DNA from: Escherichia phage nithesis
Sequence record: PV252060.1
Strand: one strand, 5' to 3'
DNA: 64,000 nt
Shown here: positions 1-6,144 of the stretch, one piece after another
How positions within the stretch are numbered: the first letter of the stretch is position 1
Layout of the letters: every line of letters begins with the position of its first letter
Notes under the pieces: model-generated
The model's input: only the letters and a program-made list of their open reading frames with translations
Databases searched by the model: none
What the model was told of the DNA's origin: nothing
Made by a program: the position numbers and the translations under genes

Positions 1-462
1 ACCCTGTACCTTAACACTAGCATCTGAACCTACTACCGTAGTTCCATTGGTTCGTCTTGTTTGTGTTCTCCATTCTCTTGCTGTACCAGCACCTCCTGCA
101 ATAGTTCCTGAGATACGAACACTGAACATTACCTGGGTATTCCTGGTTCTAGCAGGGAACTTAAGATTACCCCCTTCAATCGTTAGTGCTGCTGTACCTC
201 CTGGTGATTTAGTTATTCCTGGTAATGAAAAGTAATTGAACCAGGTCTGGTCATTTACTGCTTGGTTACCAGTCCATGTATACAAGTCCAGAAGGAAAGT
301 ATCTTCTAACTCTGTTGGTGGGATGGGTAGTAGTTCAGGGGGAAGCTCTGAAACGTTATTAGCAGAAACTATTCGTTCCCCATAGCTTCCCACGACCAAC
401 AAACCACCCTTCATTTTGCACACAACATCCTTACCACTTTGGAAAATATCTTTAATAGACAT
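1..462 (-). CDS. hypothetical protein, N-terminal 154 codons; gene runs off the window start; possible tail or virion protein
   Basis: Hand translation from ATG at 462 (MSIKDIFQSGKDVV...) is open to position 1; GAGGT ribosome-binding site 6 nt upstream; divergent from the lysis cassette. Confidence 0.4.
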   Translation of the reverse strand, partial: MSIKDIFQSGKDVVCKMKGGLLVVGSYGERIVSANNVSELPPELLPIPPTELEDTFLLDLYTWTGNQAVNDQTWFNYFSLPGITKSPGGTAALTIEGGNLKFPARTRNTQVMFSVRISGTIAGGAGTAREWRTQTRRTNGTTVVGSDASVKVQG

Positions 463-586
463 AGTTACCTCGTAGTTGATACCAGACACTATGTCTGGAT
501 GTACTTCATCATACTAAGTATTATCTAAGAGTCATCTTATGATACGACCCTATTGGGGTTCCTAACTTCACAACTACGGTAATATT

Positions 587-916
587 ATGAATGAATCGGG
601 TGAACTGCTTCTAGTCAGACTGGAGGAACGATTGAAGACTCTGTTTGAGAACCAGACAAGGGACAGGCAGGACCGTGAGAAACTGGAGGAAACTCTGGTA
701 GAACTACGGGATTCAATCAATGACATAGGCAATAGACTAAAGAATGTGGAGGATAGCTTAGCTAAGAATGAACCTACTATTGAAGAGTTCATCACCATTA
801 AGCATAAAGTTGTTGGTGCTGGAATCTTCGGTAAGTGGGTGTGGGCTGGGGCAGGTGCAATTATTGGTGTATTGGCTGCTGCAAGACGGGAGATATTCGC
901 ATGGTTCGCAGGTTAA
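587..916 (+). CDS. coiled-coil protein with C-terminal transmembrane helix; holin/antiholin candidate
   Basis: ATG at 587; charged helical N-terminus, C-terminal GAGIFGKWVWAGAGAIIGVLAAA hydrophobic segment; first gene of lysis cassette. Confidence 0.4.
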   Translation: MNESGELLLVRLEERLKTLFENQTRDRQDREKLEETLVELRDSINDIGNRLKNVEDSLAKNEPTIEEFITIKHKVVGAGIFGKWVWAGAGAIIGVLAAARREIFAWFAG

Positions 917-1161
917 AAAGAAAGGTAGAGTTAGTACCTAACTGGAAAAGATGTTGGAAGTGGGCATCCATTCAGATTAGTACATTTGGTTTAATTCTGT
1001 TCTCTGCTGTAGATATTATCCAACCAATGCTGACTGGGTTACCCCGTCACATCCTGGAAGATATTCCCCATGGTTCCAATATTGCAATTGCACTGTTTGC
1101 CTTAAACATCATAGGCAGATTGATACGATTCCGTCCAAAGGAAGATTCACATGAAAGCTAA
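901..1161 (+). CDS. putative holin, two predicted transmembrane helices
   Basis: Internal ATG at 901 of the 835..1161 ORF (835 is GTG); hydrophobic segments ISTFGLILFSAVDII and IAIALFALNIIGRLI; directly upstream of endolysin. Confidence 0.4.
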   Translation: MVRRLKRKVELVPNWKRCWKWASIQISTFGLILFSAVDIIQPMLTGLPRHILEDIPHGSNIAIALFALNIIGRLIRFRPKEDSHES

Positions 1162-1786
1162 ACAAAAACTTGCTGCGAAAGGTGGTGCAGTGGGAGGAGT
1201 TGTCGCTGCTATCCTGGGGGCAGTGTTCTATATGGAAGGGGGATATGTAAACAATCCTCGTGACCCAGGTGGGGAAACTAATCATGGTATTACCCATGCA
1301 GTAGCTAAGTCTCACAAAGAAATTCTGGCCACTGAATACGGTTGGGATGGTTCTATGAAAGGTTTATCTAAAGAGATGGCTGCTGAGATATATATTGATG
1401 ACTACGTACTTAAGCCTAACTTCGTATCCTTCGCTGATATATCTCCTGCTGTAACACATAAGCTGGTAGATGCTGGTGTTAACACTGGTGTAACCCGTCC
1501 TGCTAAGTGGTTGCAGTTATCTCTTAATGAAATGTCCCGTAATGGCAAAGACTACCCTAAAATACAGGTTGATGGTAAAGTCGGTACAAGTACTGTTAAT
1601 GCATATAAAGCATTACAGAAAAAACGAGGCAAAGTTGCAGCATGTCAGGTAATGATTAAGTTACTTGATGCCAAACAACTGAACCACTACACCTCATTAA
1701 ACATGCCAGACTTTACGTATGGTTGGGTAGCTAACCGAATAGGCAATGTGCCACTGGAGGCATGTAATGAAGATGCTAATCTCTAA
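1151..1786 (+). CDS. endolysin, GH108-like N-acetylmuramidase with N-terminal SAR-like hydrophobic segment
   Basis: EGGYVNNPRDPGGETNHGIT motif typical of GH108 muramidases; N-terminal GGAVGGVVAAILGAVFY; AAGGAAG ribosome-binding site before ATG. Confidence 0.6.
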   Translation: MKAKQKLAAKGGAVGGVVAAILGAVFYMEGGYVNNPRDPGGETNHGITHAVAKSHKEILATEYGWDGSMKGLSKEMAAEIYIDDYVLKPNFVSFADISPAVTHKLVDAGVNTGVTRPAKWLQLSLNEMSRNGKDYPKIQVDGKVGTSTVNAYKALQKKRGKVAACQVMIKLLDAKQLNHYTSLNMPDFTYGWVANRIGNVPLEACNEDANL

Positions 1787-2273
1787 AGGTTGGCCTTATC
1801 TTCTGGTGGTGGTCCTAGGGACCACCATTTACTTTTGGGGCAATTCCAATGGGCAGTCTACTGTTCAAAAGAAGTGGGATGACCAAAAGGTTGAATATCA
1901 GAAGGCAATGCAAAAATTACAGGACAAATATAATGCTCTCCAAAGAAACCATAGTTATGAAGTCGGGTTACTCACTTCCCGGTTGCAGACGGCTGAGAGT
2001 AATTACGCAAGCGAGCTTGCTCGCGTTAGCAGTGATTACGACAGCCGGATGCAACAGTCTGAAAGACGAGCATCGGTATATAAACGTCAAGCCGAAGCCG
2101 GAACCTTTGAGTGCAGAAGTCTTGCAAGCCATGCAGCCAGACTCGACAACAGTCTTGAAGAAGGCAGACGTTTGGTTGAAGAACTCAGGGCAACTGTTAG
2201 ACTCCGTGACAGCCAACTAATTGAGTTGGGTAAACAGATTCAGGCTGACCGTAAACTTTTTGAACAGGAATAA
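1746..2273 (+). CDS. i-spanin (Rz-like)
   Basis: N-terminal transmembrane segment [16 protein letters not shown] followed by long coiled-coil region; overlaps endolysin 3' end. Confidence 0.5.
1957..2220 (+). CDS. o-spanin (Rz1-like lipoprotein) embedded in another frame of the Rz gene
   Basis: Alternate-frame ORF inside 1746..2273; lipoprotein-like signal [22 protein letters not shown] then Pro-rich mature part; start codon not certain. Confidence 0.45.
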   Translation: MKSGYSLPGCRRLRVITQASLLALAVITTAGCNSLKDEHRYINVKPKPEPLSAEVLQAMQPDSTTVLKKADVWLKNSGQLLDSVTAN

Positions 2274-2275
2274 CT

Positions 2276-4546
2276 ATGGAACACCAAGACACTTTTAAGC
2301 CTTTACCAGACCCAGCTCAATCAGAGAAGTTAACGGACTGGAAAAAAGAACCAAGTATCCAATTACTGAAAGGTGATTTGGAATCAGCTAAACCTGCTCA
2401 CGATGCAATCATGGCTCAGATTCGTGAGTGGAATGACCTGATGGAAGTCAAAGGCAAAGCTAAACCCCCAAAGGTTAAAGGGCGTTCTCAAGTTCAGCCT
2501 AGACTGGTTCGCCGTCAGGCTGAGTGGCGTTATGCACCACTATCTGAACCATTCCTCTCTTCTAATAAACTCTTTAAAGTAACTCCTGTTACTTTTGAAG
2601 ATGAGTTAGCTGCACGACAGAATGAATTAGTTCTTAACTACCAATTCCGTACCCAGCTTAATAAAGTAAAGCTGGTGGATGATTACGTACATAGTGTCGT
2701 AGATGACGGTACTGGTATTGCACGTATTGGCTGGGAACGTAAGACTGTTAAGATTAAAACAGAAACCCCGGTCTTCCAGTTGTATCCAATTGAGAACCAA
2801 GAACAAGCAGATATTCTTCAGCAGGCTTTGCAGCTTCAGGCAGAGAATCCCCGTGAGTATGATGAAACAATGCCGGAAGATATTAAGGAAGCTGTTAACT
2901 ACTTCAATGAAACTGGAGAAGCCACTTATGCAATCCAGACTGGTGTTACTGAGGTAGAGGTAGAGAAAGCATTGGTTAACAGACCTACTGTTGAAATGCT
3001 TAATCCAAATAACGTAGTTATTGACCCAAGCTGTAATGGTGATTTGGATAAAGCTTTGTATGCAGTTATCTCATTTGAGACATGCAAAGCAGACCTCATG
3101 AAGAACAAAGACCGTTATCATAATCTGGATAAGATTGACTGGGAAAGTTCCAGTCCTATGACTGACCCAGACCATGAAAGTAAAACTCCTGGTGACTTCC
3201 AGTTTAAGGATGCACTTCGTAAGAAAGTAATTGCTTATGAATACTGGGGATTTTACGACATCAACGATGATGGCTCACTGGAACCAATTGTAGCTACCTG
3301 GATTGGTTCTACTCTTATTCGCATGGAAAAGAATCCATTCCCGGATGGTAAGTTGCCTTTGGTAGTTGTTCCTTATATGCCTCGTAAACGCGAACTCTAC
3401 GGTGAAGCTGATGCTGAATTGTTAGGAGATAACCAAGCAATTCTTGGTGCAACTATGCGTGGGATGATTGACCTGTTAGGTCGAAGTGCAAATGGGCAAC
3501 GTGGTTATCCTAAGGGGATGTTAGATACCCTAAACCGACGTCGATATGATGATGGTCAAGACTATGAGTATAACCCAATGCAGGGCAATCCTAGTCAGGC
3601 CATTATGGAACATAAGTTCCCTGAGTTACCTCAGTCGGCAATAGTAATGACTCAGATGCAGAACCAGGAAGCTGAAGCACTAACTGGTGTTAAAGCATTC
3701 TCTGGTGGTGTAACTGGTGCAGCTTACGGAGATGTGGCTGCTGGTATTCGTGGTGCACTCGATGCAGCATCCAAACGTGAGATGGCAATCCTTCGTCGGT
3801 TAGCTAAGGGTATGGCAGACATTGGTACTAAGATTTGTGCAATGAATGCTGTGTTCTTATCTGAGAAAGAAGTAGTACGTATTACTAATGAGCAATATGT
3901 AGAAATTAACCGTGAAGACCTTAAAGGTAATTTCGATATTGAAGTTGATATTAATACTGCTGAAATTGATAACCAGAAATCTCAAGATTTGAGCTTCATG
4001 GTTCAAACGTTAGGTAATACAGTTGACCAGACTATTACTTTATCTCTTGTAGCTAAGATTGCAGAACTCAAACGCATGCCTGACCTTGCACATGAATTAC
4101 GTACCTGGAAACCACAACCAGACCCTATGGAAGAACAGCTTAAGCAATTGGCAATTCAGAAAGCACAGCTTGAGAATGAAGAGTTGAAAAGTAAGATTGC
4201 ACTCAATAATGCTAAGGCTAAAGAGGCTATTTCTAGTGGTGATCTTAAAGACCTGGATTATCTGGAACAGGAATCTGGTACTAAACATGCTCGTGATATG
4301 GAAAAACAAAAAGCACAATCTCAAGGAAACCAGAACCTTCAGATAACTAAGGCGTTGACAACACCTACTAAAGAAGGTGAAACTACCCCCAACATATCTG
4401 CTGCTGTCGGATATAACGCTTTGACTAACGGGAACTCTTTACAGGAACGTGACTTAGCTGCACAGCAAGACCCGACTTATTCACTTAGTTCCCAGTATTA
4501 TGACCCTAGCCAAGACCCAGCATCGGCTCTTGGTATGAACTTATAA
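2276..4546 (+). CDS. portal protein (N4 gp59-like)
   Basis: 756 aa, size and position relative to capsid gene match N4-like portal; acidic C-terminus. Confidence 0.6.
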
Positions 4547-4923: not shown

Positions 4924-6144
4924 ATGACTACGGAAGCTGCAACCACAGCTTCCGACATTCTCGCAATGTCGGATGATGAGATTCTGAATATGGAAGCCCC
5001 AGCAATTGTTGCTGAGGAAGAAACTTCCACTCAGAACAACCCAGAAACCAACGGCGTACAGACTCCTGATGAAGAAGTTGACACCTCTGCTGTTGAAGAC
5101 CTACCAACCGAAGAAACCTCCCCCGAAACTGAACCAGTTGAAGATGATTCAGCAAATTCTTTAACTTCTGATAAAGTTGATGATAAAGTTGTTGACACAG
5201 AAGTTGATAGTAACGGCAAGCCGATTACTAAAGCTGAACCTTCTACTGCTGAACCAGGCCAGGAACAGAAAGAAGAAGGCAAACAGTCTGAAGGTCTGCC
5301 TGCTGACTTCAACTATAAGGAAGGTTATGAGAAGTTGATGGCTCCTTTTAAAGCTAACGGCAAAATGATTACTCCCCGTTCACCGGAGGAGGCCATTAGC
5401 CTGATGCAGATGGGTGCTAACTATACTCGTAAGATGCAAGAACTTCAGCCGTACCGTAAGGTAATGCTGATGCTACAAAACAACGGTTTAATGGATGAGG
5501 AAAAACTTTCTTTCCTGATTGACCTGGATAAGAAGAATCCTGAAGCCATTAAAAAGTTGTTGAAAGACTCTGGTACAGATCCTCTGGACTTTAATCCAGA
5601 AGAGGAGATTAACTACCAGGGTGGCAAACACCGTGTTACAGACACCGAAGCAGATTTTGCAACCGAAATTGACGACTTAAAGTCTACTCAAGAAGGACAA
5701 GCTACATTAGGTGTTATTAGCTCGACATGGGATGCTGCCAGTAAAGATGCTCTTTATCAGAATCGTGGCTTACTCCACACCATTCACGAACAGCGTGAGA
5801 ATGGTATTTATGACACCATTGCTAACGAAGTGAATCGTCTTCAGGTGTTAGGTCAGATTCCGGTAGGTACTCCGTTTATTCAGGCTTATAACTACGTTGG
5901 TAACCTCCTTGCACAACAGGGAGCATTTAACCAAGTGGCTAAGCCTGAACCGGTACAAGCAGTTAAACCAGCAGTTCAGCCGGTAGTGCGTATAGCACAA
6001 CCTAAGCAGACTCTGGCTAACAATGAGCAAGCTAAAGCAGCTTCCCTTAATCGGGCTGCTACACGTAAAGCAACACCTATTGTAAACCCACTCGCTATGA
6101 GTGATGAAGATTTCGCTAAACTCCCAGTACCGGGTAGTCTTTAA
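4924..6144 (+). CDS. acidic protein, scaffolding-protein candidate
   Basis: 406 aa, strongly acidic low-complexity N-terminus, immediately upstream of major capsid gene. Confidence 0.35.
   Translation: MTTEAATTASDILAMSDDEILNMEAPAIVAEEETSTQNNPETNGVQTPDEEVDTSAVEDLPTEETSPETEPVEDDSANSLTSDKVDDKVVDTEVDSNGKPITKAEPSTAEPGQEQKEEGKQSEGLPADFNYKEGYEKLMAPFKANGKMITPRSPEEAISLMQMGANYTRKMQELQPYRKVMLMLQNNGLMDEEKLSFLIDLDKKNPEAIKKLLKDSGTDPLDFNPEEEINYQGGKHRVTDTEADFATEIDDLKSTQEGQATLGVISSTWDAASKDALYQNRGLLHTIHEQRENGIYDTIANEVNRLQVLGQIPVGTPFIQAYNYVGNLLAQQGAFNQVAKPEPVQAVKPAVQPVVRIAQPKQTLANNEQAKAASLNRAATRKATPIVNPLAMSDEDFAKLPVPGSL

Follow-up and report, generated by a model that had tools for sequence, protein, structure and literature searches.

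The DNA analysed here is a stretch of 64,000 nucleotides (nt) of Escherichia phage nithesis (sequence record PV252060.1), referred to below as the window. At positions 587-2273, the listing of open reading frames (ORFs) and a reading of bases 1-3000 revealed five tightly packed genes on the + strand, directly upstream of the portal gene. They encode a small tail-anchored membrane protein, a two-helix membrane protein, a muramidase, an Rz-like protein and, in another frame of the Rz-like gene, a lipoprotein. Along the cassette the genes overlap, in order, by 16, 11 and 20 nt, and Shine-Dalgarno sequences are found before the starts at 901, 1151, 1767 and 1933. Together, these five genes very probably make up the late lysis cassette of a coliphage of the N4 type (Gamaleyavirus). 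The original prediction for this DNA, made from the letters and their ORFs, had placed a lysis cassette at 901-2273; the motifs, the genes, their order and their coordinates are present as described, but the cassette starts at 587 and the first gene, encoding a candidate pinholin (587-916), had been missed. The cassette is already known: dozens of near-identical genomes carry an annotation of it, and experiments have characterised its N4 orthologues, showing that the N4 gp60-63 cluster is enough to lyse E. coli rapidly (Awuah et al., bioRxiv 10.1101/2025.11.12.688109). Our analysis establishes the gene structures, the membrane and lipobox features, the family membership and the orthology to the N4 proteins.

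The first gene (587-916) encodes a 109-amino-acid (aa) protein whose N-terminal, cytoplasmic part is a coiled coil. Hydropathy shows one membrane helix at the C-terminus (approximately residues 80-98), and the protein contains the conserved PTIEEFITIKHK ('LIN domain') motif. Its sole match is to phrog_5211 (E = 3e-50), a family labelled function unknown. Alignment with the NC_008720 protein shows 68% identity to N4 gp63; PTIEEFITIKHK is identical in both proteins and the membrane helix differs by conservative I/L/V/A substitutions only. N4 gp63 is C-terminally anchored and complements the phage 21 pinholin, but not lambda S. It kills cells alone, is conditionally essential and times lysis, and a cluster of rapid-lysis mutations (S62F, T65I, I70T/N, T71A, I72L) has been mapped in it (10.1101/2025.11.12.688109). 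At these mutated positions the window protein agrees with N4 with the sole exception of S62, where it has Asn. N4 gp63 also has an internal alternative start at Met17, which is not found in the window protein. By its orthology to N4 gp63, the 587-916 product is predicted to be the pinholin that triggers the endolysin. In many public records (GenBank, RefSeq), the gp63 homologue is named 'tail length tape-measure protein', 'tail needle protein' or 'hypothetical'. The tape-measure and tail-needle labels are a propagated mis-annotation, since a tail-anchored membrane protein of 109 aa whose orthologue has been shown to be a pinholin can have neither function.

The product of the second gene (901-1161) has 86 aa and two membrane helices, visible as 19-residue Kyte-Doolittle (KD) peaks at residues 22-40 and 59-77, a basic N-terminus and a charged C-terminus, consistent with a class II holin with a predicted N-in/C-in topology. 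Its start lies 16 nt inside the end of the gp63-like gene and is preceded by a GGGAG Shine-Dalgarno sequence 8 nt upstream. The protein matches PF25612 (DUF7940; 51.8 bits against a cut-off of 27) and phrog_1356 (holin; E = 3.7e-30), and is 64% identical to N4 gp62, a holin with two helices whose triggering is late and whose loss is tolerated (10.1101/2025.11.12.688109). The two-helix holin candidate that had been proposed here thus finds family and orthologue matches, but its N4 counterpart is late-acting and non-essential. By analogy with gp62, the window protein is best described as a putative accessory, late-acting holin, for which the N4 gp62 data predict a lethal hole formation that depolarisation can trigger. 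In Pseudomonas phage Meara (1612-2537 of the fetched locus), a gp63-like gene stands directly before the endolysin gene with no gp62-type holin between them, an arrangement that fits the dispensability of gp62.

The frame of the gp62-like gene is open for 22 codons ahead of ATG 901 (835-900); the first of these, GTG 835, comes immediately after a stop codon. The codon at 835 is GTG in the window and ATG in N4, for which a 109-aa long form of gp62 and lambda-like dual starts have been described (10.1101/2025.11.12.688109). From its sequence, a 108-aa long form of the gp62-like holin starting at GTG 835 is possible. Conservation of 835-900 is not independent evidence for such a form, because this stretch overlaps the highly conserved codons of the gp63 helix in another frame.

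The third gene (1151-1786) encodes a 211-aa protein with a GH108 domain at residues 24-113 (Pfam PF05838; 71.0 bits against a curated cut-off of 21.2) and a PG_binding_3 domain at residues 117-196 (PF09374; 31.8 bits against a curated cut-off of 24.6). It matches phrog_315 (endolysin) and is 69% identical to N4 gp61. In the NCBIfam search only a sub-threshold match to NF040573 (holin-associated N-acetylmuramidase equivalog; 57 bits against 240) was found, which was not used for naming. The closest solved structures are those of the Salmonella proteins Sen1395 (6V3Z; E = 1.2e-26, residues 23-197) and TtsA (6V40; E = 6.3e-20), which have the same two-domain layout; 7dnp, 2ikb and 2is5 are further matches. 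TtsA and Sen1395 are muramidases in which a catalytic flap and a peptidoglycan-binding helical domain have been described, with E14 as the catalytic residue of TtsA (PMC6996933). The catalytic-motif stretch of the window protein, EGGYVNNPRDPGGETNHGIT, comprises residues 29-48 and lies directly behind KGGAVGGVVAAILGAVFYM. Within it, E29-G-G-Y...D38-P-G-G-E-T43 is invariant in 8 diverged homologues and, in the alignment to 6v3z and 6v40, coincides with their EGGY Glu. Considering the offset caused by the tag of the crystallised protein, we infer that TtsA E14 equals this Glu. Judged by unambiguous sequence homology, the protein has a muramidase fold, in agreement with the GH108 muramidase originally proposed; the matches to 6v3z and 6v40 remove the possibility, considered at that stage, of an endolysin lacking such a fold. 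An N-acetylmuramidase activity is predicted from N4 gp61, which had earlier been shown to be a membrane-associated N-acetylmuramidase, a result attributed to Stojkovic and Rothman-Denes 2007 (10.1101/2025.11.12.688109). TtsA and Sen1395 serve toxin secretion, whereas the window enzyme would serve phage lysis. In addition, their match starts at window residues 19-23, leaving out the basic N-terminus that resembles a signal-arrest-release (SAR) sequence.

This N-terminus, MKAKQKLAAKGGAVGGVVAAILGAVFYM, contains the candidate SAR segment GGAVGGVVAAILGAVFYM (1181-1234; residues 11-28), which directly adjoins Glu29 (codon 1235-1237). Nine of its 18 residues are Gly or Ala, its KD peak over 19 residues (KD19) is 1.78, and it is preceded by K2, K4, K6 and K10. 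A19, I21 and E29 are invariant across the 8 diverged homologues. The core of the segment aligns residue for residue with N4 gp61, such that N4 G12 corresponds to G15 in the window. The start differs between the two, with an ATG and four extra residues before the SAR core in the window and a GTG in N4. N4 gp61 complements endolysin defects in lambda lysogens, which have a large-hole holin, as well as in hybrid-21 lysogens, which have a pinholin. It shows SAR behaviour, with a gradual, holin-independent rounding of cells, and spontaneous N4 rapid-lysis mutants introduce a negative charge in its SAR segment, e.g. G12E (10.1101/2025.11.12.688109). Tethering of the window endolysin, its release upon depolarisation and its cooperation with the pinholin are predicted from these observations.

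Conservation of the segment was assessed with an alignment of 8 endolysins that led to 80 related loci from IMG/VR, scanned by script; 76 of these have an intact endolysin ORF with the catalytic motif, and all survey calls are rule-based rather than derived from trained predictors. A hydrophobic segment right before the catalytic Glu is present in all 76 endolysins, which represent 62 distinct N-terminal sequences. The best KD mean over 16 residues of these segments is at least 1.64 (median 2.28), and Gly, Ala, Ser and Thr together account for a median fraction of 0.5. The SAR-like, Gly/Ala-rich N-terminus noted in the original prediction is therefore not only present in the window but kept in 76/76 endolysins, and its N4 gp61 homologue is SAR by experiment. 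A downstream lipobox ORF was found at 63 of the surveyed loci. Where the inner-membrane spanin (i-spanin) could also be called, this ORF was embedded in the i-spanin gene at 45 loci, overlapped it at 1 and was separate at 2. The gp63 motif was found upstream in 31/76 loci, with a lipobox ORF in 30 of these 31 and an embedded one in 28.

The fourth gene (1767-2273) encodes the i-spanin, a 168-aa Rz-like protein homologous to N4 gp60 (55% identity), with a type II layout in which an N-terminal membrane helix (approximately residues 8-26) is followed by a long helical, polar periplasmic part. The first 20 nt of the gene are shared with the end of the endolysin gene, and GGAGG precedes the start by 6 nt; the protein matches phrog_6197 (Rz-like spanin; E = 8.5e-77). 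Wholly within this gene, in its +1 frame, lies the gene of the candidate outer-membrane spanin (o-spanin; 1933-2220), an Rz1-like homologue of N4 gp60a. The precursor would comprise 95 aa from ATG 1933 or 87 aa from ATG 1957, with the stop at 2220. ATG 1933 has an AGGA Shine-Dalgarno sequence 8 nt ahead and is the start used in St11Ph5, and the alternative start at ATG 1957 is shared with N4. Nucleotides 2041-2052 encode the lipobox T-A-G-C (Cys codon 2050-2052). In a rule-based check, it is preceded by a hydrophobic core with a KD value of 1.91 over 12 residues and by Arg residues in the n-region. The mature part of 56 aa is 79% identical to N4 gp60a, and these matches of the Rz-like gene and its embedded lipobox ORF are in line with the spanin pair that had been suggested for this region. 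The mature part has Asn at +2 (NSLK... after the Cys) and not Asp, i.e., no inner-membrane retention signal, and the protein is therefore predicted to be sorted to the outer membrane. As no Cys is present in the mature part besides the lipidated one, disulfide-linked dimers in the style of lambda Rz1 are impossible in this o-spanin. N4 gp60 and gp60a together fully complement lambda Rz/Rz1 (10.1101/2025.11.12.688109), and disruption of the outer membrane as the last step of lysis is the role predicted from them for the window pair.

The embedded lipoprotein frame is not a chance ORF. Among 20,000 synonymous versions of the i-spanin gene, generated from the local codon usage with the protein kept constant, an alternative-frame ATG ORF of at least the observed 123 codons arose in 0.27% of the resamplings, and an embedded ORF with a lipoprotein-type signal ahead of 25 or more mature residues in 0.57%. 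This null model is conservative, because the fixed protein keeps two thirds of each overlapping codon. At identical i-spanin residues, the synonymous difference inside versus outside the overlap is 0.01 vs 0.12 for St11Ph5, 0.02 vs 0.09 for G7C and 0.19 vs 0.52 for N4; a rarer synonymous change in the overlap is the prediction of two overlapping coding constraints. An embedded frame with a lipobox and 54-59 mature residues is also found in N4, 3HA13, G7C and St11Ph5, and likewise in the Achromobacter phages Axy13 and JWAlpha, Pseudomonas phage Meara, Erwinia phage Fifi051 and Xanthomonas phage RiverRider.

Despite belonging to different genera (Gamaleyavirus for the window, Enquatrovirus for N4), the window and N4 share the gene order of the cassette (gp63-gp62-gp61-gp60/gp60a), the overlaps and the site directly upstream of the portal gene. 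Common to both are the SAR segment beside the EGGY Glu, the tail-anchored gp63 with its conserved motif and the 56-aa mature lipoprotein in the +1 frame. The signal peptide of the o-spanin differs from that of N4 (MKSLLILLLTSTIVGC). The principle of a membrane-tethered endolysin that is freed by depolarisation is the same as in phages 21 and P1 (S21/R21, P1 Lyz), and the N4 orthologues cross-complement phage 21 and lambda mutants (10.1101/2025.11.12.688109). In contrast to the phage 21 and P1 enzymes, which have a T4-lysozyme-type (GH24) fold, the window enzyme combines a GH108 muramidase with PG_binding_3. Its candidate pinholin has a single, C-terminally anchored helix where S21 has two helices, and unlike the phage 21 and P1 systems the cassette also contains a second, putatively large-hole holin. 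Similar to lambda Rz/Rz1, the spanin pair is embedded in the +1 frame and has an outer-membrane lipoprotein partner.

The roles of the proteins, their order of action and the enzyme activity are carried over from the N4 experiments; the mechanism is thus drawn by orthology to phage N4, with the sequence features coming from the window. Late in infection, the muramidase would be exported by the Sec system and remain inactive, tethered to the inner membrane by the weakly hydrophobic SAR helix adjoining Glu29. The gp63-like tail-anchored pinholin would build up and then collapse the membrane potential. Upon depolarisation the SAR helix would leave the bilayer, allowing the enzyme to degrade the peptidoglycan all around the cell. 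The gp62-like protein may act later as a large-hole holin, as a backup or modulator and not as the primary trigger. Finally, the i-spanin and the outer-membrane lipoprotein are expected to form a complex spanning the periplasm that, once the wall is gone, would fuse or disrupt the outer membrane.

Several observations weigh against this interpretation of the locus or favor a different division of roles. All functional statements made here rest on N4 proteins that are 55-79% identical to those of the window. G7C, the type Gamaleyavirus, shows no lysis inhibition according to the N4 paper (10.1101/2025.11.12.688109), so that regulation and the relative weight of gp63 and gp62 may differ in the window phage. 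The window protein has Asn at the position of S62, which in N4 gives rapid lysis when changed to Phe. A minor possibility is that the natural Asn at this position helps to explain the missing lysis inhibition in G7C-type phages. The two-helix protein (901-1161) could, as the original prediction implied, be the sole or primary holin and the 587-916 product unrelated to lysis. The family labels (holin for phrog_1356, unknown function for phrog_5211), the tape-measure or tail-needle names in several records and a timing control that could differ from N4 in the G7C-like phages would agree with this. We nevertheless consider it improbable. It is N4 gp63, and not the deletable gp62, that complements a pinholin defect, kills cells by itself, is conditionally essential and holds the rapid-lysis mutations. 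The window protein is 68% identical to gp63, with conservative substitutions in the helix and an unchanged LIN motif, PTIEEFITIKHK. In Pseudomonas phage Meara a gp63-like gene lies directly upstream of the endolysin gene and no gp62 homologue is present, and a tail-anchored membrane protein of 109 aa cannot be a tape measure.

For the endolysin, the sequence alone would also be compatible with a cleavable Sec signal peptide. Its basic n-region, hydrophobic core and small residues (L-G-A before V25) do not by themselves separate a cleavable signal or a permanent membrane anchor from a SAR segment, and in KD19 peak it does not fall below the other membrane helices of the cassette. Yet the segment consists for about 50% of Gly and Ala and abuts the catalytic Glu, so that cleavage would leave only about 4 residues ahead of this residue. 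The homologous segment of N4 gp61 behaves as a SAR domain (it works with a pinholin, rounding is gradual and holin-independent, and G12E leads to rapid lysis) and the hydrophobic segment is conserved across the 76 homologues; a signal peptide or permanent anchor is, for these reasons, improbable. The embedded o-spanin has no match in Pfam, PHROGs or NCBIfam, and its assignment rests on its features and its identity to N4 gp60a. Together with the weak Shine-Dalgarno sequence before ATG 1957 and the lack of an annotation in some records, e.g., the RefSeq record of Bp4, this could indicate a chance, unexpressed ORF, with the i-spanin acting alone or with another partner. Such a chance origin is hardly credible, considering the rarity of an ORF of this kind among the synonymous resamplings (0.57%), its retention, with 54-59 mature residues, in different subfamilies and in phages of different host genera, the suppression of synonymous substitutions in the overlap, the AGGA sequence 8 nt ahead of ATG 1933, and the 79% identity to N4 gp60a, which is required along with gp60 to complement lambda RzRz1. 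The N4-type organization, with a gp63-like pinholin, a SAR endolysin, an accessory holin and a nested spanin pair, is the one we retain.

At the junction of the endolysin and i-spanin genes, two adjacent hairpins are found on the + strand (1769-1829). In the first (1769-1803), the loop contains the stop codon of the endolysin gene and the stem starts two bases after the i-spanin ATG. The second (1805-1829) lies inside the codons of the i-spanin membrane helix and consists of an 11-pair stem and a 3-nt loop, followed by the T-rich TACTTTTGG. The fold of 1767-1845 has a z-score of -3.87, with 0/200 shuffles being as good. In N4 (5412-5478 of the fetched locus, minus strand), hairpins occur at the same places with a different sequence (z = -4.25), and a terminator scan picks the second hairpin in both phages. 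Between the second stems of the window and N4, four pairs are changed on both sides (T-A/G-C, G-C/A-T, T-A/C-G and C-G/T-A) and none is broken; in Escherichia phage Jgk1 two such pairs are seen. These compensatory pairs were read in a codon register based on the proteins, as the MAFFT alignment of the DNA placed N4 one codon out. In other relatives, a hairpin starts 39-42 nt after the i-spanin ATG, though not always in the same register. The junction fold is among the best 5% of folding windows of its own locus in 14/31 gp63-positive loci, versus 6/45 of the remaining loci.

Terminator-like hairpins also occur in or near the SAR-coding segment, at 1204-1225 in the window and at 6026-6042 of the fetched N4 locus (minus strand), and in the record of JWAlpha its depositors marked a 'putative transcriptional terminator' (2011-2036 of the fetched locus) close to the 5' end of the gene for the endolysin. 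The second junction hairpin was considered as a real terminator; with similar hairpins within the SAR-coding segments of the window and N4, and the JWAlpha annotation, this was not adopted. The recurrence of terminator-like hairpins in SAR-coding segments therefore calls for caution in regarding any of these hairpins as functional. They may be a by-product, without function, of the codons of membrane helices (GCN, GGN, GTN, then TTY/CTN). That they form a conserved cis-regulatory element, acting in translational coupling, as a leaky attenuator or both, is a tentative and rather unlikely alternative. If it were true, the element would fix the dosage of the spanins relative to the endolysin, and compensatory substitutions would maintain the hairpins, even dictating amino-acid changes in the membrane helix of the i-spanin.

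Downstream of the cassette, the portal gene (2276-4546) encodes a 756-aa protein that matches SU10_portal (E = 2e-150) and is 71% identical to N4 gp59. Upstream, a divergent gene on the minus strand starts at ATG 462, with a GAGG Shine-Dalgarno sequence ahead, or at GTG 489, and continues past the left edge of the window. It is the counterpart of Bp4 orf14 (hypothetical, 217 aa; 95% DNA identity), and one public record calls its counterpart 'tail needle knob'. The window resembles Bp4 in having this divergent hypothetical gene upstream of the cassette, where G7C and St11Ph5 have a tail-fibre gene on the same strand. A scan for sigma-70 promoters found no + strand site upstream of 587, and as the total number of matches was below that expected from shuffled sequences, no promoter is claimed.

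A megablast search of 560-2300 against GenBank phages returned 87 records, the best of which (St11Ph5, vB_EcoP_ShWW44, Bp4, PD38, pSb-1, ECBP1 and EC1-UPM) are 95-96.5% identical over the full length. This similarity places the window in Gamaleyavirus (Schitoviridae, Enquatrovirinae), the G7C-like sister genus of N4. Records of Gamaleyavirus already name a holin, an N-acetylmuramidase or endolysin and an Rz-like spanin, and the embedded Rz1-like gene is annotated at the identical position in G7C (gp60', 'embedded within ORF60'), St11Ph5 (gp60.1) and ShWW44. The same five ORFs at the same positions as in the window are found in G7C (HQ259105; gp63, gp62, gp61, gp60 and gp60'), St11Ph5 (MG208881), ShWW44 (PQ900156) and Bp4, and these annotated Gamaleyavirus cassettes, 95-96.5% identical to the window in nucleotide sequence over 560-2300, show only point differences from it.

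The RefSeq record of Bp4 (NC_024142; 4786-5273 of the fetched locus) contains a 225-nt 'Rz-like spanin' coding sequence and leaves the embedded o-spanin unannotated. In the homologous region, the window and G7C have a full-length i-spanin gene plus the embedded gene, and the short coding sequence of Bp4 is probably an annotation or sequence problem in the record. For Jgk1, an 'UNVERIFIED' record, a search by motif and ORF identified no intact endolysin ORF. The locus still matches endolysin residues 26-211 at 85% identity in tblastn, and a frameshift or sequencing error could be the cause.

The practical value of these observations lies in annotation hygiene, as the gp63-type pinholin is misnamed in many public records and spanin genes are omitted or cut in some. 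For the biology of these phages, the near-orthologous cassette of the G7C type, for which no lysis inhibition is reported, offers a natural comparison with N4 for locating the determinants of lysis inhibition.

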